Notes under the pieces: model-generated
Databases searched by the model: none
What the model was told of the DNA's origin: nothing
Seen by the model: only the letters and a program-made list of their open reading frames with translations
Made by a program: the position numbers and the translations under genes
Shown: positions 1,993 to 63,745 of the stretch, piece by piece
How the letters are laid out: each line of letters begins with the position of its first letter
How positions within the stretch are numbered: position 1 is the first letter of the stretch
Origin: Candidatus Shapirobacteria bacterium
GTDB taxonomy: Bacteria > Patescibacteriota > Microgenomatia > PFEM01 > JBDRBL01
Assembly (NCBI GenBank): GCA_043822685.1
Contig: JBDRBL010000003.1
Coordinates: 4,659-68,658 of the forward strand
Direction of reading: 5' to 3'
DNA length: 64,000 bases

Positions 1993-2271
1993 ATGAACTT
2001 AACTAACTTTCTTTCTACTCCCCAGTTGGCCAAATTATTGGGTATCAGCCGCGTGGCTGTTTATCAAAAGATCAAAGCCGGTCAAATTCCCGCTGTTAAG
2101 ATTGGTCGTAATTTTGTGATTGCCAAAAGCGAACTTGGTAGTTTGACGGGGGACAGTTTGACCGACAAAGAGGATCGATTGATTCGCCAAGCCGTTAAAA
2201 AAACCATTGCCGATTATGGCGAAACCCTCAAGTTACTAGCCGCCTATGACCAAAGCCATCCGTCTGATTGA
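1993..2271 (+). CDS. HTH DNA-binding protein (excisionase/MerR-type HTH), putative antitoxin partner of the Doc toxin
   Basis: LAKLLGISRVAVYQKIKAGQIPAVKIGRNFVI helix-turn-helix motif; 26-nt overlap with the downstream Doc gene. Confidence 0.55.
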   Translation: MNLTNFLSTPQLAKLLGISRVAVYQKIKAGQIPAVKIGRNFVIAKSELGSLTGDSLTDKEDRLIRQAVKKTIADYGETLKLLAAYDQSHPSD

Positions 2272-2665
2272 GGTTAAACGAATCACTTTTTATTTAGCTC
2301 GGGAATTCCTGAGTTTTAATGAAGCTATTCCAGATTTTGACACCCGTTTTTCTGATGTTTTGGAGAGTTGTTTGGCGGTTCCTTTCCAACGCTTCGCCCG
2401 TCATTCACTTTATCCTGACCTAGTCAGTCAAGCCGCCATGCTTTTTTACCTTTTAGTTAAAAATCATCCCTTTCAAAACGGTAATAAAAGAATTGCAATG
2501 ACGACTTTGTTGTATTTTTTGTTTAAAAACCAAAAATGGCTTGAAATTGACGCGAAAAGACTTTACAATTTTGCTGTTTGGGTGGCCGAAAGCCCGGCCG
2601 AACTCAAAGACGACACTCTCTCCGCCGCCAGAAAATTTATCAAAAGATATTTAGTTGAATTGTAA
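2246..2665 (+). CDS. doc: Doc (death-on-curing) / Fic-fold family toxin
   Basis: HPFQNGNKR matches the Doc variant (HxFx[D/N]GNKR) of the Fic motif; about 140 aa; overlaps the upstream HTH gene. Confidence 0.7.
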   Translation: MTKAIRLIEVKRITFYLAREFLSFNEAIPDFDTRFSDVLESCLAVPFQRFARHSLYPDLVSQAAMLFYLLVKNHPFQNGNKRIAMTTLLYFLFKNQKWLEIDAKRLYNFAVWVAESPAELKDDTLSAARKFIKRYLVEL

Positions 2666-2666
2666 C

Positions 2667-3047
2667 TTACTTCACCTCAAACCATTCGATTGGCGTGCGG
2701 TCGTCGGGTTCGCCGTTGTAATTGACGGTAATTTCCTCACCTTTTTTAATATTTTTAATGGCGCGATAGACCATGGTCACGGTGCGAAAGTTTTGTTTCC
2801 AGTCGGCGTTGGGCTCAAAGGAATGATTGTAAATGGAGCCGTAGCCTAGAACCATACAAGCGCCGCGAGTGGAACGCCAGGGATAAATGTACTGATCTAA
2901 AACTGTGTTTTCGCAGCGTTTCCGTTCCTTTGGGGTCAGAGGGATGATAGGGCAAACCTCGACGATTTCTCTCTTTTTAAAATTCTTTAAAGCGATTATT
3001 CCCCGGCCCTTGTTTTTAAAATTTTTGAGCTTAACATCTTTGATCAT
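2667..3047 (-). CDS. SET-domain protein methyltransferase (126 aa)
   Basis: GRGIIALKNF (GxG), YNHSFEPN (NHSCxPN-like) and EEITVNYN motifs; start reassigned to the MIKDVK ATG at 3047, because the longer 248-aa ORF runs over the divergent gene at 3093. Confidence 0.7.
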   Translation of the reverse strand: MIKDVKLKNFKNKGRGIIALKNFKKREIVEVCPIIPLTPKERKRCENTVLDQYIYPWRSTRGACMVLGYGSIYNHSFEPNADWKQNFRTVTMVYRAIKNIKKGEEITVNYNGEPDDRTPIEWFEVK

Positions 3048-3092
3048 GGGTTGAGTATAGCAAAAAACTCTCCTTTTTGGTAAGATAATTTT

Positions 3093-4151
3093 ATGGCTGA
3101 ATCGACGACCACCGGTGAAACAAAGCTGCCCAAAATTGTCCTGCAGATTGACAGAGACGCTCTTAAAAGACTTAATTTCGTGACGGTAGCTTACTCTCAT
3201 GTTGAACCGGAGATGTTTCCCACCAAAGATGCTTACGAAGCGGAGGTGGAGGTGGAGGAGCGGGCTAAAGAAGTGGCAGAAGCGGTTAAAAAACTGGGAA
3301 TTGAGTGTAAAACTTCTCCCGGTAATCAATACTTTTTGACCAACTTGCTGGTGGACAAGCCCGATCTGGTCGTTAATTTGGTTGATACTCTCAAGGGAAA
3401 AGATAGTCTGCAAACTTCAGTACCGGCGGCTTTGGAGCTATCCAACATTCCTTATACCGGAGCAGGCATGGAAGGCATGGTCATTGGTAATAATCGCAAT
3501 ATTACTAAAAGAATGTTGGTGGCCTACGATATTCCCACTCCCGCCTTTCAATTTATTCGTCGGGTGGGAACCAAAGTAGACGAGACTCTGGGTTTGCCCC
3601 TGATTGTCAAACTTAACGAGGGTGGTGGCAGCGTTGGTGTCGACAACAAGGCCGTTAAAGAGACCTTTCGTGAAGCCCAGCAAAAAGTTGACAAAATGAT
3701 TTCCCGCTATAAGTTGCCGGTGATCATGGAACAGTTTGTGGATGGGCCGGAAATTACGGCCTGTGTTTTTGATGACGGCAGTAAGAAACATGTTTTTATG
3801 GGCCAAAAGATTTTTCGTAAAAAACCCGATGGCAAGCATTTTTTTACCAGTCTTGAATCTTATGATGACGCGCGGGCCTATCGTTATGTTTATGTGGCTG
3901 AACCGTTGAGAAGCAAAATTGCCAAACTAACTATTAGGGCTTTTCGCGGTCTTCACCACGAGGATTATGCCAAATTTGATATTCGTTACGACGAACATAC
4001 CAATACGCCTTATTTTACCGACTCCAACCCCAATACCGCTTTTGGTCCCGATCTTGGCCTGCCTTTCACCGAAGTGGCGGCGATGCACAACATCAGCTTT
4101 GATGATTTGATTGCCAGCCTGCTTTCCAAATATGGTAAAGAAATCCGCTAA
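3093..4151 (+). CDS. ATP-grasp ligase of the D-Ala-D-Ala ligase (Ddl) fold family, non-canonical N-terminus
   Basis: MEQFVDGPEITACVF (Ddl-like EEFIxGxExT core); C-terminal FTDSNPNTAFGPD analogous to the Ddl EVNTxPG; lacks the canonical N-terminal GGxSxE motif. Confidence 0.65.
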   Translation: MAESTTTGETKLPKIVLQIDRDALKRLNFVTVAYSHVEPEMFPTKDAYEAEVEVEERAKEVAEAVKKLGIECKTSPGNQYFLTNLLVDKPDLVVNLVDTLKGKDSLQTSVPAALELSNIPYTGAGMEGMVIGNNRNITKRMLVAYDIPTPAFQFIRRVGTKVDETLGLPLIVKLNEGGGSVGVDNKAVKETFREAQQKVDKMISRYKLPVIMEQFVDGPEITACVFDDGSKKHVFMGQKIFRKKPDGKHFFTSLESYDDARAYRYVYVAEPLRSKIAKLTIRAFRGLHHEDYAKFDIRYDEHTNTPYFTDSNPNTAFGPDLGLPFTEVAAMHNISFDDLIASLLSKYGKEIR

Positions 4152-4749
4152 TTTTTATTTTCCCGACCTGCCCCGGGTAGTTCAAAAGAACAATGTCTAT
4201 TGCGGCCCGGCTTGCCTGGAGATGCTTACCGGTTTTCAGAATGTTCATCTTGATCAGGAGGATTTTGTTCAGGCCCTTGGTTTAGAGAAAAAAATTTACC
4301 AACGGGGTCTGTTTGTGGAGGAAATGGCACTGACGATAAACAAATTATTGCCCGAGTTGTGCTTTTGGTTTAAGGAGTGCGCCACAATTAAGGAATTGTC
4401 GCAATTGGTTAATGTTTTTAAACATCCGGTCGGGGTGGAGTGGCAGGGAGTTTTTCGCTACGCGACCCGGCAGGAGGCAGAAGACGATGATCCGGGTCAC
4501 TACAGCTTGATAACGGCCTTAGAGACGAAAAAGAACTTGATTATGATGGCCGATCCCTACAAGGATTATGCCGGCAAAGATCGAAAATTTACGGTTTTGG
4601 AGTTTGAACGGCGGTGGTGGGATATCAACAAAGTGGTTGATTCAAAAAGAGGAAAAACCAAAGAAGTTTATGACTATCGCGTTATGTTTATTGTCACGCC
4701 GCAAAAAGCGACTTTTCCCTTGCGTTTGGAAATGACCAAGATTAGTTAG
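4111..4749 (+). CDS. papain-like cysteine peptidase, C39 / BtrH-like family (start uncertain)
   Basis: N-terminal Q..VYCGPACLEM catalytic Cys motif and downstream GHYSLI His motif, typical of C39-like peptidases; overlaps the upstream ATP-grasp gene by about 40 nt. Confidence 0.5.
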   Translation: MPACFPNMVKKSANFYFPDLPRVVQKNNVYCGPACLEMLTGFQNVHLDQEDFVQALGLEKKIYQRGLFVEEMALTINKLLPELCFWFKECATIKELSQLVNVFKHPVGVEWQGVFRYATRQEAEDDDPGHYSLITALETKKNLIMMADPYKDYAGKDRKFTVLEFERRWWDINKVVDSKRGKTKEVYDYRVMFIVTPQKATFPLRLEMTKIS

Positions 4750-5038
4750 TACAGTTGCAATTGCGGTCGAAGGGGCAGGCGGCTTGGTAGCAGCGAAGCA
4801 ATTTGCCGCAACTGCTTCCCGGCGGGCACCAGTTTTTGCCGCAGATCAGTCCTTCACATTCGGTATCCTCGCCGCAGGGCCGATAACACTTCGTGTCCGC
4901 CGCCGCCGCCCTTTTTTGGTACAACTGCTTTTTGCTTATTTGCTGAAAAGATAAAGCCAGCGCCAAAATTAAAAATATTAAAAAAAACAAGGAACGTACG
5001 GTTGGTTGCCTTAAATTTCGCTTAAACTCCTCCCACAT
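4742..5038 (-). CDS. small secreted/anchored cysteine-rich protein: N-terminal hydrophobic signal/anchor plus a 10-Cys C-terminal domain of about 50 aa
   Basis: SLFFLIFLILALALSF hydrophobic segment; DTKCYRPCGEDTECEGLICGKNWCPPGSSCGKLLRCYQAACPFDRNCNC; convergent with the C39-like peptidase. Confidence 0.45.
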   Translation of the reverse strand: MWEEFKRNLRQPTVRSLFFLIFLILALALSFQQISKKQLYQKRAAAADTKCYRPCGEDTECEGLICGKNWCPPGSSCGKLLRCYQAACPFDRNCNCTN

Positions 5039-5066
5039 ACTTCTAATCTAACACATTTTTTCCTTC

Positions 5067-5096
5067 TTGACAAATTTATCAATCTAATACTATACT
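5067..5096 (+). promoter_or_regulatory. sigma70-like promoter of the iscRSU operon, leaderless-type
   Basis: TTGACA (5067-5072), 18-nt spacer, TATACT (5091-5096), ATG at 5107 with no SD in between. Confidence 0.45.
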
Positions 5097-28971: not shown

Positions 28972-29044
28972 GGGGCGGTAGCTCAATGGTGGAGCGGCAT
29001 CCTTATAAGATGAAGGCTTGATGGTTCGAATCCATCCCGCCCCA
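28972..29044 (+). tRNA. tRNA with UAU anticodon (reads AUA; Ile)
   Basis: manual cloverleaf fold: 7-bp acceptor GGGGCGG/CCGCCCC, D-stem GCTC/GAGC, anticodon loop CUUAUAA, T-arm GATGG-TTCGAAT-CCATC, discriminator A; a G27-A43 mismatch and a 6-nt variable loop make the fold imperfect. Confidence 0.65.
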
Positions 29045-29056
29045 CAGAAATGGATT

Positions 29057-31095: not shown

Positions 31096-31434
31096 ATGAA
31101 GCGTTTGATCAAATATATTATTTTTTTTGGCGGTATTGTCGTAATTATTGGCTTGTCAAAAGATATTCTGCGCTTGCTTAAAGTGGGAGACGAAGTTAAA
31201 ATTGCCGAGCAAAAAGTTTTTGACTTAAAGCAAAAAAATCAGGAACTCAAAGCGCAACTGGACTACTACCAGTCTGATGAGTTTGTGGAAAAAGAAGCTC
31301 GCAATAAGCTCAACTTGGTTCGTCCGGGTGAAACGATTATTGTTTTACCTCTTGATTACGGCGGAAAAGCCTCTTCCTTTGAACATCCTGACCCGCCCAA
31401 TTATCTCAAATGGTGGCGATTGTTTTTTGAGTAG
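31096..31434 (+). CDS. septum formation initiator FtsB/DivIC family
   Basis: TM + coiled coil + EARNKLNLVRPGE motif; start taken at the internal ATG 31096 (MKRLIKY). Confidence 0.6.
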   Translation: MKRLIKYIIFFGGIVVIIGLSKDILRLLKVGDEVKIAEQKVFDLKQKNQELKAQLDYYQSDEFVEKEARNKLNLVRPGETIIVLPLDYGGKASSFEHPDPPNYLKWWRLFFE

Positions 31435-31505
31435 CAGGGGAGGGAATCGAACCCTCGACCTCGGCGTTATGAATGCCGCGCTCTTACCAACTGAGCTACC
31501 CTGCC
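31432..31505 (-). tRNA. tRNA-Met (CAU anticodon; elongator-type, could be Ile2/lysidine)
   Basis: manual cloverleaf on the minus strand: acceptor GGCAGGG with a G1-U72 wobble, anticodon loop UUCAUAA, T-loop TTCGATT. Confidence 0.7.
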
Positions 31506-31534
31506 AAATTAGTCGTTAGTCAGAATCAAGGCTG

Positions 31535-31563
31535 ATTATAGCAATAAAAAAATCCCGAAACAA
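31535..31563 (-). promoter_or_regulatory. promoter for tRNA-Met (minus strand)
   Basis: TATAAT about 29 nt upstream of the mature 5-prime end, TTGTTT -35 with a 17-nt spacer (read on the minus strand). Confidence 0.45.
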
Positions 31564-31579
31564 TTTCGAGGTGAATGTG

Positions 31580-31649
31580 TTGCGGGGCCGGGAGTCGCAC
31601 CCGGTCTGCGAGATTATGAGCCTCGCGTGCAACGGTACACTACCCCGCG
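31580..31649 (-). tRNA. tRNA with CAU anticodon, initiator-like (C1:A72 mismatch)
   Basis: manual cloverleaf: acceptor CGCGGGG/CCCCGCA with C1-A72 unpaired, anticodon loop CUCAUAA, unusual T-loop TGCGACT, 70 nt. Confidence 0.55.
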
Positions 31650-49651: not shown

Positions 49652-50061
49652 ATTATACTACAATAAGTAGTATTATGGAAACAAGAATTTTGAGTACCTT
49701 GGAGCAGAAGGTGATGTCTTTGATTTGGGATTGCACGCCCTGTTCGATTAAGGAAATCAAGAGCCGGCTGGACAAAAAAAAGAAGCTGGCGTATACCACA
49801 GTGGCCACGTTAGTTCAGCGTCTTGAGAACAAGGGGATGCTAAAGCGAGTTGCTGATGCCTCTTCGGGGAGTTGTTTTAGATATGCTCCCAAAATGAGTC
49901 GAGAGGCCTACTCGTCGCTGGTGGCTCAATCGTTTATTAGCAACTTTCAACACTCGTTTGGCGACTTGGCGATCGCTTCATTTGCTAACTCCATCAATTC
50001 TCTTAAGAAAGCCAAGCGGGAATATTTCTTAAAGCTTCTCTCAAAGCATGCTAAAAAATAA
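49642..50061 (+). CDS. BlaI/MecI/CopY family transcriptional repressor
   Basis: winged-helix N-terminus EQKVMSLIW...SIKEIKSRL...AYTTVATLVQRLENKGMLKR; possible alternative start at 49675. Confidence 0.7.
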   Translation: MSTNYTTISSIMETRILSTLEQKVMSLIWDCTPCSIKEIKSRLDKKKKLAYTTVATLVQRLENKGMLKRVADASSGSCFRYAPKMSREAYSSLVAQSFISNFQHSFGDLAIASFANSINSLKKAKREYFLKLLSKHAKK

Positions 50062-51010
50062 ACCGCTGGTTCTTTTGTTTTTGTTTTTGCTTTTTGTCAG
50101 TCTGCTTTTGGGATTTATTTTTGCTAAATATTTTCCCTTTTTGTTTCGTGTGCCGGTGTACTACTGTCAACACCGGCTGTGTTCCACTCTGATTAAGATC
50201 TCCAGTTTTTTGGGAACGACTCTTTTTAGGCTTCTGGTAATCACTCTTCTGATCACTTTGACCAAGACATTTCTGGATTTTTGGCGTGTTGCCGCCCTAC
50301 GTCGTCATCTGACTCCGTTGGCGCTAAGCACCAAATCAAAAAAAATCATGCACGAGCTCAAGTTGGATAAACAAGTAATGATGGTTAAACATGTCGCCCC
50401 TTTTGTTTTTTGTCTGGGCTTTTTCCGTACCAAGATTATCATCTCCGATACTTTTTTAAAACTGCTTACTCCTCGACAATTAAAAGCGGTTTTGTATCAC
50501 GAAAAATATCATCAAGATCATTTTGATGCTTTGATTATGTATCTTGGCCGTTTTTGGCAATCGCTTTTGCCCTTTTTCCCCCTATTAAAAGACCAGTTAA
50601 ACCATTTATCTTTAGACCGGGAAATTAACGCCGATCATCAAGCGATGGTAAAATTGGGGAGCAATCGGCCGCTCGTTTCTACCTTAAAAAAGTTATTGGC
50701 TTACGAGGTTATACCGGCTTATCGAACCTTTCCCTCGTTTTTGGATTCGGAGAAAAATTTGGAGATGCGGATTAAGGCTCTTCTGCATCAAAGTTTCGCC
50801 TCGTCTTCCTTTTCTCGAAAAAATGCGACCTTGAGTTTGATCGTTTTGGTTATTCTTTTAAGTCTACTTTTTCTGCCGCTTAATACGGTCAATATTAATG
50901 CGGCTGGTACCAAAGAGGTGGTGGCCTGTCTGAATGATGAGTCTTGTATCCAAGCATGTCGGCAAGAGGAACATGAGGACGGGGCGCTTTTTGACCAGCT
51001 TCACCCTTGA
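50048..51010 (+). CDS. M56 family (BlaR1/MecR1-like) membrane metallopeptidase, sensor/anti-repressor
   Basis: HEKYH HExxH zinc motif in a TM context; overlaps the repressor gene. Confidence 0.65.
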   Translation: MLKNKPLVLLFLFLLFVSLLLGFIFAKYFPFLFRVPVYYCQHRLCSTLIKISSFLGTTLFRLLVITLLITLTKTFLDFWRVAALRRHLTPLALSTKSKKIMHELKLDKQVMMVKHVAPFVFCLGFFRTKIIISDTFLKLLTPRQLKAVLYHEKYHQDHFDALIMYLGRFWQSLLPFFPLLKDQLNHLSLDREINADHQAMVKLGSNRPLVSTLKKLLAYEVIPAYRTFPSFLDSEKNLEMRIKALLHQSFASSSFSRKNATLSLIVLVILLSLLFLPLNTVNINAAGTKEVVACLNDESCIQACRQEEHEDGALFDQLHP

Positions 51011-52484: not shown

Positions 52485-53282
52485 ATGCTAACTAAGACAG
52501 AGTTTAATCAAAGAAATCAGTTAGAAAAAAAGACAACTCAAGTTTTTGAGAAAACTCAACCTCCTAAAGATTATTTGAGGGTTGTTTTGATTGCTCTTTT
52601 GGTTATTGCTTCTTTTCTTTTGGGAAAGATGTCTACAGGACCGGAACAAAAGACGGTGGCCAATCTGCCTGCTGCTAATAATCTGCCTGTTGCTACTCCC
52701 CAGCCGACGATTGATCCCAGTAAAGTTGATAAACTGGCGGTGACTGATCACCTGCGGGGTGACAAGAATGCCCGATTTCAGTTAATTGTTTATTCTGATT
52801 TAGAATGTCCCTTTAGTAAGAAATTTCAGACGACGATTAAGCAGGCGAGTGATCAGTACAAAAATCAGGTTGCGGTTGTTTATCGGCACTTTCCTTTGGA
52901 TCAGATTCACTCCAAAACTCGAAAAGAGGCTCAAGCAACCGAGTGCGCGGCCAAGTTGGCCGGTAATGAGGGTTTTTGGCGATTGACCGATAAAATCTAC
53001 GAGACGACAAACTCCAATAACAGTTTGGATTTAACGACCTTGCCGACTTTGGCAGTCCAAGTTGGTCTGGACAAAGTTGCTTTTCAAAGTTGCTTAGACA
53101 GTGACAGTGTGGCTCAAACGGTTGAGGCTCAATATCAAAGCGGGGTTAGGGCGGGGGTAAGTGGCACTCCGGGGAGTTTCTTGGTTGATAGCCGAACCGG
53201 AACGGTAAAGTTTATCTCTGGCGCCCAACCCCTTGAACAGTTAAAATCATTAATTGATAGCGCTCTAAGTCAACAACAATGA
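52485..53282 (+). CDS. DsbA-like thioredoxin-domain protein (CxxS variant), membrane-anchored
   Basis: LECPFSKKF thioredoxin active-site region, N-terminal TM. Confidence 0.55.
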   Translation: MLTKTEFNQRNQLEKKTTQVFEKTQPPKDYLRVVLIALLVIASFLLGKMSTGPEQKTVANLPAANNLPVATPQPTIDPSKVDKLAVTDHLRGDKNARFQLIVYSDLECPFSKKFQTTIKQASDQYKNQVAVVYRHFPLDQIHSKTRKEAQATECAAKLAGNEGFWRLTDKIYETTNSNNSLDLTTLPTLAVQVGLDKVAFQSCLDSDSVAQTVEAQYQSGVRAGVSGTPGSFLVDSRTGTVKFISGAQPLEQLKSLIDSALSQQQ

Positions 53283-54736
53283 AACAACATATCTATAAGG
53301 TGCGGGGCATGCATTGTGCTTCCTGTGAACTTATAATTGAGAAAAAATTAATCCAACTTGAAGGTGTGGAAGCGGTAGATGCTTCTACAACCAAAGAAAC
53401 CGTGACTGTTTTTTATAAAGATGAACTTCCTTCAGAAAGTTTGATTAACAAAGTTTTAAAGGAAGACGGTTATTGTGCTTGTGAAAGTGACAGTAAATTT
53501 GAAAATGTTTCTGTTTCAGGTAAAGGTCTTTTTACCGCCATTGGTATGGCTCTCTTGGTCTTTTTTGGTTTCTTACTACTTAATCGTTTGGGGCTGGCCA
53601 GTTTAGTTAATGTGACGGCTTCTTTGTCCTTGCCAACCTTTCTCTTTTTTGGTTTGCTGGCCGGTGTTTCTACCTGTGCGGCTTTGACAGGGGGGATCGT
53701 TCTTTCGATGTCCAAATCTTGGGGTGGCCGGCGCGAACCACATATTTTATTTAATCTTGGTCGAGTGGTCTCGTATGCTTTGTTTGGTGCCATCTTGGGC
53801 ATAACTGGTAGTAAATTACAATTTTCACCGACTTTTAGCGCTTTTTTGGTGATCGCGGTTTCGATTTTTATGATTCTTACTGGCTTGAAAATGCTGGGAG
53901 TTAAAGCTTTGCGCGGTTTCCAAATTGCTTTACCCAAGTCGTGGACTCGCCAAGCGGTCAACGGCCAAAACTTTCAAGGTAGATACATGTCCTTGATAAT
54001 GGGCGCCTTGACGATTCTTCTTCCGTGTGGTTTTACGATTACCGTGGAAAGTTTAGCTTTATTATCCGGCAACCCGATGCAAGGTGCTTTGATTATGGCC
54101 GCTTTCGCTGTGGGGACGGCACCGGGGTTGTTGGCGATTGGCTTTTCGGCGGTTAAAATGGAAAATTCTTCCCGATCAGTGTTGTTTTCCCAAATTGCTG
54201 GGGCATTGATCTTGCTTTTTGCAATTTTTAACATCAACTCCCAACTTAATGTTTTGAGTTTACCCAGTCTGGACAACTTGAGTATTGGATCTTCGACCAA
54301 AGGGCAAATAATCGGGGCGAGTGATGCGAAAGACGGTTTGGCGCCTATTGTTAATGGTAAACAAGTGTTAAAAATGAACGCCAGCGCTTCCGGTTATTCG
54401 CCTAACTATTTCAAAGTACGCGCCGGCACGCCGGTTCGTTGGGAAATTACCGATACTGGCACCAGCGGTTGTACTAACGCGGTAATGTCCCAAAGTCTTT
54501 TTGAAGGTCAAATTCCTCTGACTCCGGGCCAGACGAGTGTCAAGGAATTCACTCCGGCCAAAGCCGGAAAATATAAATTTAGTTGTTGGATGGGTATGGT
54601 GACCGGAGTTATGGAAGTGATTAATCAAGATGGCTCTGGAGTTGTCAATACCGGCGCGACAGCCGAGATTCCTTCCGGAGCGAAAGGGTGTGGGTGCGGC
54701 GGTGGCGGTGGCAGTAGTTGCGGAGGCGGGAGGTAA
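53279..54736 (+). CDS. fusion protein: N-terminal HMA metal-binding domain + polytopic membrane domain + C-terminal cupredoxin-like domain with a Cys/Gly-rich tail
   Basis: GMHCASCE MxCxxC; about 8 TM; C-terminal GKYKFSCWMGMV cupredoxin-like ligands; tail GCGCGGGGGSSCGGG. Confidence 0.55.
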   Translation: MKQHIYKVRGMHCASCELIIEKKLIQLEGVEAVDASTTKETVTVFYKDELPSESLINKVLKEDGYCACESDSKFENVSVSGKGLFTAIGMALLVFFGFLLLNRLGLASLVNVTASLSLPTFLFFGLLAGVSTCAALTGGIVLSMSKSWGGRREPHILFNLGRVVSYALFGAILGITGSKLQFSPTFSAFLVIAVSIFMILTGLKMLGVKALRGFQIALPKSWTRQAVNGQNFQGRYMSLIMGALTILLPCGFTITVESLALLSGNPMQGALIMAAFAVGTAPGLLAIGFSAVKMENSSRSVLFSQIAGALILLFAIFNINSQLNVLSLPSLDNLSIGSSTKGQIIGASDAKDGLAPIVNGKQVLKMNASASGYSPNYFKVRAGTPVRWEITDTGTSGCTNAVMSQSLFEGQIPLTPGQTSVKEFTPAKAGKYKFSCWMGMVTGVMEVINQDGSGVVNTGATAEIPSGAKGCGCGGGGGSSCGGGR

Positions 54737-62791: not shown

Positions 62792-62985
62792 AAAGCATGA
62801 ATTTCGTGGTTGACCCAAAATTGTGTATTGGCTGTGGAACGTGTGTGGCGCTTGCCGGCAAGAGTTTTAAGATGAATGATCAGGGCAAAGCGGAGGCAAT
62901 TAATCCTCCCGGTGATGAAGAAAAAATAATTGGAGAAGTAATTGACAGCTGTCCGGTCGCGGCGATTGAGGAGGTTCATGGCTAA
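62788..62985 (+). CDS. small ferredoxin (single cluster)
   Basis: CIGCGTC...CP cluster motif. Confidence 0.7.
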   Translation: MKSMNFVVDPKLCIGCGTCVALAGKSFKMNDQGKAEAINPPGDEEKIIGEVIDSCPVAAIEEVHG

Positions 62986-63745
62986 AGAAAAAAATTATAC
63001 TAATATTGTCCTTATTGTTTTGTTGGTCGCGGCGGCGTTTTTGCTGGGAAAGATGTGGGATAAGAGTAAAATTACCGGTAGCGGCTCGACCGTTCCGACA
63101 GGCGGTGTTTCTCCTGCGGCAAAAGATCCTGATGCCGTTTTGGCCGGATATGCCGGTCAAATCGGCTTGGACGTTGATCAATTTAAAAGTTGCGTTTCTT
63201 CGGGCAAGTATGCCCAAGCAGTCAAAGATAATCTTGCTTTTAGTAACGAAATCGCCAAGACGGCCTGGGATTTGAACGTTATTGATCATAAAGAAATTCC
63301 TAGTCGTGACCAAGCCGGTTTTGGCACCCCAACTTTTTTTATCAATGGCCGAATTTTGGTAGGCGCTCAACCTTACGAGGTTTTCGACACGGCGATTAAA
63401 GAAGCTTTGAATGGTCAAGCTAAAGGACCGGCTTTGAAACAAGATACCCTAGATCAAATTGTGGCCAATGCGGCCGCCGTCAAGGGCGACAAAGAAATGA
63501 AAGTCGTTGTTGCCGAGTTTTCCGATTATGAGTGTCCCTTTTGCGGCCGATATGTTACCCAGACGATGCCGGAAATTTTGAAAAATTATGGAGACAAAAT
63601 TCTTTATGTTTTCTTGGATTATCCCCTGCCTTTTCACCAATCGGCCCAAAAGATGGCCGAGGCGGCCAGATGCGCGGGCGAGCAGGGCAAGTATTGGGAG
63701 CTGCACGATTTGATCTATGCCGGCCAGGCCGACTGGTCGGGGTAG
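62978..63745 (+). CDS. membrane-anchored DsbA-like thiol:disulfide oxidoreductase
   Basis: YECPFCGRY CxxC motif; N-terminal TM; start set at the ATG 62978. Confidence 0.65.
   Translation: MAKEKNYTNIVLIVLLVAAAFLLGKMWDKSKITGSGSTVPTGGVSPAAKDPDAVLAGYAGQIGLDVDQFKSCVSSGKYAQAVKDNLAFSNEIAKTAWDLNVIDHKEIPSRDQAGFGTPTFFINGRILVGAQPYEVFDTAIKEALNGQAKGPALKQDTLDQIVANAAAVKGDKEMKVVVAEFSDYECPFCGRYVTQTMPEILKNYGDKILYVFLDYPLPFHQSAQKMAEAARCAGEQGKYWELHDLIYAGQADWSG

Follow-up and report, generated by a model that had tools for sequence, protein, structure and literature searches.

Mini-domains dense in disulfides are a common feature of the secreted proteins of eukaryotes but are uncommon in bacteria. Among the described systems closest to the protein considered here are the spider inhibitor cystine knot (ICK) toxins (ProTx-II, GsMTx2, and heteropodatoxin-2; Pfam Toxin_12), which are likewise small, disulfide dense, and secreted, and the C-terminal modules of surface enzymes, such as carbohydrate-binding modules (CBMs), dockerins, and the hevein-like CBM18, which have the same architecture, with proline/threonine-rich (PT-rich) or proline/serine-rich (PS-rich) linkers and a position at or near the C terminus. 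Binding or anchoring modules are normally deployed as terminal heads on linkers to enzymes or anchors. To our knowledge, the surface proteins of the Candidate Phyla Radiation (CPR; Patescibacteria), which presumably mediate host attachment, are almost entirely uncharacterized. Here, we describe a gene for a 98-residue, ten-cysteine protein at positions 4742 to 5038, minus strand, of a 64,000-nucleotide stretch from Candidatus Shapirobacteria (assembly GCA_043822685.1, contig JBDRBL010000003.1, forward-strand positions 4,659 to 68,658), which is referred to as the window throughout. The gene is real and evolves under purifying selection, and we consider it reasonably probable that its product is a membrane-tethered, or possibly released, disulfide-stabilized binding module belonging to a rare new domain family.

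The complete coding sequence runs on the minus strand from an ATG at 5036 to 5038 to a TAA at 4742 to 4744, and its 98 codons translate as MWEEFKRNLRQPTVRSLFFLIFLILALALSFQQISKKQLYQKRAAAADTKCYRPCGEDTECEGLICGKNWCPPGSSCGKLLRCYQAACPFDRNCNCTN. The Cys-rich peptide quoted in a first, sequence-only reading of the window is reproduced exactly in this ATG-initiated frame, with ten cysteines in 98 residues. The protein begins with a basic region carrying four K/R residues, which is probably cytoplasmic (residues 1 to 15, 4994 to 5038, MWEEFKRNLRQPTVR), followed by an uninterrupted hydrophobic segment with a mean Kyte-Doolittle value of 3.05 (residues 16 to 31, 4946 to 4993, SLFFLIFLILALALSF) that is flanked by basic residues on both sides. 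A conserved Q/K-rich linker (residues 32 to 47, 4898 to 4945, QQISKKQLYQKRAAAA) ends in four alanines (AxA type) and leads into the 51-residue ten-cysteine module (residues 48 to 98, 4745 to 4897), of which C51, C55, C61, C66, C71, C77, C83, C88, C94, and C96 make up 20%. The cysteine spacing in this tail is C-x3-C-x5-C-x4-C-x4-C-x5-C-x5-C-x4-C-x5-C-x-C (10 Cys in 49 residues). No other stretch in the six frames of the window holds 10 Cys within 50 residues, and a profile hidden Markov model (HMM) found no second copy of the module there. The only other six-frame stretch to reach 7 or more Cys per 50 residues, at 50055 to 50189 on the plus strand (8 Cys in 45 amino acids [aa]), is probably noncoding and lies out of frame with a BlaR1/M56-like gene at 50048 to 51010.

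A search of 5.8 billion proteins returned two relatives: P0002, an NCBI protein from a Candidatus Shapirobacteria metagenome-assembled genome (MAG) that is 99% identical and annotated 24 codons shorter, and P0001, an ortholog of equal length that is 74% identical. A full HMMER scan of 1.84 billion representative proteins contributed the ortholog P0003 (49% identity), and a signature DNA scan of metagenome contigs contributed a fourth orthologous locus, L092 (about 70% identity). The three orthologs P0001, L092, and P0003 keep the frame and all ten cysteines. Between the window and locus L001, nucleotide differences number 24, 10, and 59 at codon positions 1, 2, and 3, and 41 codon changes are synonymous versus 25 that are nonsynonymous. 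The third-position bias reaches through the N-terminal 31 codons (4, 4, and 11 changes within residues 1 to 15), and residues 1 to 15 are themselves conserved in P0001 and L092. Nei-Gojobori proportions of nonsynonymous differences (pN) are 0.14, 0.18, and 0.31 for the three orthologs, against saturated synonymous proportions (pS) of 0.84 to 0.98, and the ten-Cys protein (74% identity) is better conserved than the flanking Rrf2 (68%) and C39-like (54%) proteins. The sequence-only reading had treated the open reading frame (ORF) as genuine and had proposed that it would prove spurious were it to lack a predicted signal peptide and be conserved in no relative; orthologs at 74, 70, and 49% identity, with substitutions of the coding type, bear out the former and dispose of the latter. 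Its assignment of the DNA to a CPR genome was also correct, with matching NCBI proteins, 99 to 100% identical, coming from a Candidatus Shapirobacteria MAG.

An antisense ORF at 4784 to 4954 on the plus strand was rejected as a coding frame because the substitution excess would sit on its first codon positions, a pattern wrong for coding. No Rfam family matched between 4300 and 5500, tblastn against phage and plasmid collections gave no match to the ten-Cys protein, and a word-indexed profile search with alignment A1 returned only the two closest proteins. The single match in a viral-contig signature scan was set aside as chance (GC content 0.61, no HMM match), as were 79 genome-contig loci matching the degenerate DNA pattern C-G-x2-W-C-P-P-G-x2-C, which come from GC-rich genomes in which the profile HMM found the domain absent.

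The public annotation (P0002, locus tag ABH807_00490) gives a 74-aa product that begins with the TTG at codon 25, which drops the basic N terminus and nine of the 16 hydrophobic residues. We favor the ATG at 5038, and with it the 98-aa model, because of the N-terminal conservation and the geometry of a putative promoter. The promoter-like site, TTGTCA-17 nt-TAGATT with a TG-extended -10 element, occupies 5045 to 5073 on the minus strand and ends 6 nt before the ATG. A TGnTAGATT or TGnTAGAGT element stands exactly 6 nt ahead of the start codon in the window, in L001 (at about 1565 to 1596), and in L092 (at about 160 to 194), and the TTGTCA -35 element occurs at 17 nt in both the window and L092. 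No conserved, convincing Shine-Dalgarno sequence was found upstream of the start in these three loci. The arrangement suggests a leaderless or nearly leaderless transcript, a suggestion weakened by L092, in which the start codon is GTG and a leaderless transcript would begin with that codon. The favored start corrects the public gene model, in which the annotated start lies 24 codons late and the export segment is removed.

The HMMER scan also recovered the approximately 50-residue tail alone, within unrelated larger proteins, and the metagenome scan added one more such case. The family amounts to about 10 distinct sequences among the 1.84 billion representative proteins and 241 million metagenome records. 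Its contigs are mostly low in GC (0.34 to 0.46) and metagenomic, and the members beyond the window protein are presumed, from their context, to belong to the CPR. When ten members are aligned (A3), all ten cysteines are invariant together with Y52, G67, and P89, so that Tyr always follows the first cysteine, Gly the fourth, and Pro the eighth; nearly invariant are a G-L before the fourth cysteine, a W before the fifth, and a Y after the seventh. The ten cysteines are likewise invariant in alignment A1. Pfam-A and NCBIfam contained no match to the module in the window protein, P0003, or P0006 to P0010, and literature searches turned up no account of the domain or of Cys-rich surface proteins in the CPR.

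The architectures of the larger members are those of surface proteins. In a 1,531-aa protein (L090/L096), a fervidolysin-type pro-domain, a Peptidase_S8 domain (E 5e-50), FG-GAP repeats, Laminin_G_3, and a PS-rich linker are followed by the module, 32 residues from the C terminus. P0008 has an N-terminal anchor, a beta-helix with Chlamydia-PMP/POMP-type repeats, a PT-rich linker, and the module, and P0009 carries the module in midprotein, with an N-terminal signal and a C-terminal type I dockerin (E 9e-8). P0007 and P0010 consist of an N-terminal transmembrane (TM) anchor, the module, a long PT-rich stalk, LPEAG or LPLAG, and a hydrophobic C terminus, a layout that looks like a sortase-type sorting signal; the tail of P0007 weakly matches the wall-anchor region of internalin K (E 1.4e-4). 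P0006 is a stand-alone form in which a P/S-rich linker takes the place of the Q/K-rich pattern, QQ[IL]S[QK][KR]Q[LVI][YF]Q[KQ]xA, that is retained in four orthologs.

At the P0007 locus (L086, 1904 to 7237), a run of genes for PT-rich proteins lies downstream of pilN/pilO. The proteins of this run have in common a C-terminal [LI]P-x-[AT]-G-x-x-LPTIG motif and a hydrophobic tail without a basic end, which looks like a lineage-specific sorting signal. One of these neighbors of P0007 (408 aa) is itself Cys rich.

Because the contexts of the module in its homologs (S8 peptidase, dockerin, PT-rich linkers, and LPxAG-type anchors) are all extracytoplasmic, the module of the window protein should be extracytoplasmic as well, which agrees with the sequence-only reading. 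That reading had also pointed to a Sec-type hydrophobic N terminus, and the basic n-region with four K/R followed by 16 hydrophobic residues upholds it: an equivalent of the hydrophobic segment is found in all five stand-alone homologs, and a basic n-region plus an h-region of at least 7 to 15 residues near the N terminus, as Sec export calls for, is present. Residues 16 to 31 would serve as a Sec signal-anchor or as the h-region of a signal peptide. Conserved AAA/APA/ATG motifs are found downstream but lie 13 to 16 residues past the h-region, compared with a distance of 3 to 7 residues for a signal peptidase I site, which has small residues at -3 and -1. A type IV prepilin signal was rejected for want of a G/FTLxE motif.

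The window also encodes a membrane-anchored, DsbA-like thioredoxin-fold protein (52485 to 53282, plus strand; Pfam DSBA E 7e-18) with an N-terminal TM segment and the active site CPFS, a candidate helper for extracytoplasmic thiol-disulfide chemistry that may act on the ten-Cys protein. Five extracellular disulfides are likely because the module contexts are extracytoplasmic and DsbA-like and DsbD_2 proteins are encoded in the window. The gene at 53279 to 54736 (plus strand), which overlaps the DsbA-like gene by 4 bp, encodes a 485-aa protein in which heavy-metal-associated (HMA), DsbD_2 transmembrane, and cupredoxin-like domains are fused; CPFS is a monothiol site, and this pairing of redox and copper-related domains is unusual. 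A second TM-anchored DsbA-like ORF, at 62942 to 63745 (plus strand) and with CPFC, appears rearranged or truncated: a match to the C-terminal end of DSBA precedes a match to only the N-terminal half of Thioredoxin_4, and then comes the stop. Possible explanations are a frameshift, pseudogenization, and an assembly error.

The same cysteines could in principle form a membrane-tethered metal-binding cluster facing the cytoplasm, of metallothionein or Zn/Fe-S-like type. A cysteine content of one in five, four basic residues directly after the hydrophobic segment, and the divergence of the gene on this flank from an iron-sulfur operon (Rrf2-IscS-NifU, with IscS a cysteine desulfurase) would all fit such a cluster. 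Extracytoplasmic cysteines, however, are normally oxidized, and the module is found behind signals or anchors and PT-rich linkers and together with a dockerin, an S8 protease, and LPxAG-type signals. It contains no His, no CxxC pairs, and only one CxC, its Cys count is invariantly even, and at the P0003 locus (L085) another gene stands between the Cys-protein gene and Rrf2. We regard a metal-binding cluster as most improbable.

That the gene encodes an exported, disulfide-rich module protein is, in our judgment, highly probable. In the mechanism that we favor, the basic N terminus and the 16-residue hydrophobic segment would insert via Sec in an N-in/C-out orientation, leaving the Q/K-rich helix and the Cys module outside the membrane, where the ten cysteines would be oxidized and form five disulfides; the membrane-anchored DsbA-like proteins of the window are plausible catalysts. 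The module would form a compact, protease-resistant binding head for a cell surface, host surface, or polymer ligand, tethered by an uncleaved anchor or released if signal peptidase uses the AAA/AxG motif 3 to 5 residues before the first Cys. In the larger homologs, PT-rich linkers would connect the same head to enzymes or to C-terminal anchors of the sortase type. A role specifically in binding or adhesion is a tentative part of this proposal, suggested by analogy with other surface modules.

Several observations count against the proposal of a tethered binding head. The window protein has four K+R residues on each side of the hydrophobic segment, and because these numbers are equal, the positive-inside rule alone leaves the orientation unfixed; the orthologs lean toward N-in (5 versus 2 and 5 versus 3). 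Of the two DsbA-like proteins, the first carries CPFS in place of CxxC and the second seems to be truncated or rearranged. AlphaFold gave no reliable three-dimensional model: the mean predicted local distance difference test (pLDDT) score of the full protein was 67, and that of the domain was 59. Generalizations across a family of about 10 distinct sequences are fragile, and a binding function is suggested by domain architecture alone.

On its other side, the gene faces a convergent ORF of 212 aa at 4111 to 4749 (plus strand), and the 3' ends overlap by 8 bp, with no intrinsic terminator found in a search between the two genes. The ORF encodes a stand-alone C39_2-type cysteine peptidase that scores above the Pfam threshold for Peptidase_C39_2 (E 1.9e-5, 25.7 bits against a cutoff of 24), confirming the convergent, abutting C39-like gene described from the sequence. 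The protein matches only C39_2/C39 in Pfam, has neither an ABC transporter domain nor a signal peptide, and shows a catalytic set (Q25, C31, H130, and D148) that is invariant in 13 homologs. The start of the gene is overlapped by the end of a D-Ala-D-Ala-ligase-like ATP-grasp gene (3093 to 4151, plus strand), to which it is translationally coupled.

This neighborhood raises the alternative that the ten-Cys protein is a ribosomal precursor peptide whose linker, ISKKQLYQKRAA, acts as a double-glycine-like leader that is cut by the C39-like peptidase, with the ATP-grasp enzyme possibly adding further modifications. In each of the four orthologous loci, the Cys gene and the C39_2/ATP-grasp pair are 0 to 2.1 kb apart, the linker resembles the leader consensus LSxxELxxIxGG at positions -12, -11, -7, -2, and -1, and the Gln/Cys/His/Asp catalytic set of the peptidase is retained. 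The four loci, however, belong to close relatives with general synteny and are not independent, and the convergent genes are not cotranscribed. A peptidase lacking a signal peptide and an ABC transporter domain would have to reach a putative cut site outside the membrane, the -4 position of the linker is K/Q and not hydrophobic, and P0006 does not carry the linker motif at all. The stand-alone peptidase forms at least 126 protein clusters, the named ones belonging to Shapirobacteria, Beckwithbacteria, and other Microgenomates, and its gene follows the ATP-grasp gene in every locus examined; yet an HMM search of three more distant loci (L098 to L100) found no Cys-module ORF within 4 kb of the pair in any of them. 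In L085, a response regulator gene and a 441-aa gene separate the Cys-protein gene from the C39-like gene. Because the pair is widespread in Microgenomates without a Cys gene nearby, the adjacency is most simply seen as local synteny among close relatives. A precursor peptide is very unlikely, and the functional tie to the peptidase implied by the sequence-only reading is not supported. We take the neighboring C39-like peptidase to lie outside the ten-Cys system, and the C39/ATP-grasp pair may be a peptide ligase/peptidase module in its own right.

The cysteine spacing had also been labeled knottin- or defensin-like, and the protein had been called a candidate toxin, effector, or inhibitor. 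In this scenario, a secreted toxin or antimicrobial mini-protein of the knottin (ICK) or defensin type would be detached from the N-terminal segment and would target membranes or channels of hosts or competitors. A knottin has three disulfides (C1-C4, C2-C5, and C3-C6), the last of which passes through the ring made by the other two. The first six cysteines of the module do have a spacing within generic ICK loop lengths, and a profile search of PDB sequences returned spider ICK toxins only (ProTx-II, GsMTx2, and heteropodatoxin), at nonsignificant E values of 0.5 to 1. An hhalign comparison of the family with ten ICK toxins gave a probability of 57% over 20 columns, with the common motif C-x5-C-E-G-[LM]-[VI]-C-x2-3-W-C; the CC doublet of the toxins is absent from this stretch, and because it is represented by a single Cys in the family, one knot Cys has no counterpart. 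P0003 matched CarbpepA_inh, the knottin family of the potato carboxypeptidase inhibitor, with an E value of 0.026 and 14.7 bits against a cutoff of 25. All of these matches are below significance or gathering thresholds, and no Pfam knottin or defensin family matched the window protein.

The defensin comparison is based on C51-x3-C55 and C94-x-C96, which resemble the CxxxC...CxC motif pair of the cysteine-stabilized (CS)-alpha-beta defensins, where the CxxxC of an alpha-helix is disulfide bonded to the CxC of a beta-strand. The family consensus, C-Y-x-P-C, nonetheless has a Pro within what would be the defensin helix, and DSSP assigned no helix to the low-confidence domain model (pLDDT 59). 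AlphaFold predicted one long helix, at residues 12 to 45, that takes in the hydrophobic segment, also in a low-confidence model, and fold searches with these models (pLDDT 59 to 67) gave no match. With fold searches empty and no significant sequence or profile match, the knottin/defensin-like label is unsupported. The toxin, effector, or inhibitor role fares no better: occurrence of the module in very large surface enzymes and wall-anchored proteins is atypical of toxins, the window protein has an isoelectric point (pI) of about 6.2, family members are near neutral or acidic (pI 4 to 7.7) rather than cationic, and no exporter is present. ICK toxins, moreover, have 6 to 8 Cys and a CC doublet, whereas the module has 10 Cys and no doublet, is bacterial, and occurs within proteins of up to 1,531 aa. 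We therefore consider a toxin or antimicrobial mini-protein unlikely.

A related proposal, which we consider quite unlikely, is that the module is a bacterial relative or convergent analog of cystine-knot mini-proteins, with two extra disulfides, that is displayed or shed by an episymbiotic CPR cell as a host-directed ligand. It could then serve as the head of an adhesin, as a blocker of channels or proteases, or as an effector, and the 98-aa form would be its minimal deployable version. If this were true, the family would belong to the very small number of mini-protein families with disulfide knots that are native to bacteria and would provide a handle on CPR-host contact.

Elsewhere in the window, ARAGORN reports a tRNA-Ile with anticodon TAT (UAU) at 28972 to 29045 (plus strand); bacteria usually decode AUA with a lysidine-modified CAU tRNA, and a UAU tRNA-Ile is uncommon. 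At a distance of 2.4 kb, a pair of neighboring tRNA-Met(CAT) genes occupies 31431 to 31649 (minus strand). At 1993 to 2665 (plus strand), genes for an HTH_17 protein (92 aa) and a Fic/DOC protein (139 aa) have overlapping ends, and the pair resembles a toxin-antitoxin module. It adjoins a gene for a SET-domain protein (2667 to 3413, minus strand; E 1e-16) that is also conserved at the P0003 locus.

The work defines a new, very rare ten-cysteine module that is used in two ways, in a minimal protein tethered to the membrane and at the end of large surface enzymes. At 51 residues, it is a small, synthesizable target for structure determination and ligand screening. Should its function be simply structural or adhesive, it would be a useful but ordinary addition to domain catalogs.

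The comparison with known systems can be extended beyond the toxins. Class II bacteriocins and other double-glycine peptides are likewise small, Cys-containing peptides encoded beside a C39-family protein, and the linker described here is loosely leader-like. Double-glycine leaders, however, have no membrane segment and end in GG, GA, or GS, whereas the ten-Cys protein has a 16-residue hydrophobic segment and a candidate site of AA or AT; the bacteriocin C39 domain resides on an ABC exporter, whereas here it is a stand-alone 212-aa peptidase accompanied by an ATP-grasp enzyme. With the sugar-binding mini-domains, the module shares conserved aromatic residues (Y52, W70, Y84, and F/Y90), but it has no sequence match to CBM, hevein (Chitin_bind_1), or dockerin models, and its pattern of 10 Cys is unlike that of hevein, which has 8 Cys with a CC doublet. 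The TIL domain and other ten-cysteine, five-disulfide modules are of similar length, about 50 to 55 residues, and, like the module, stand alone or occur in large extracellular proteins. From TIL the module differs in its Cys spacing, in having no Pfam TIL match at E ≤ 1, and in its prokaryotic (CPR) lineage. It is best regarded as a rare, hitherto undescribed domain family that falls into an established class, the small, disulfide-rich modules of extracellular proteins.

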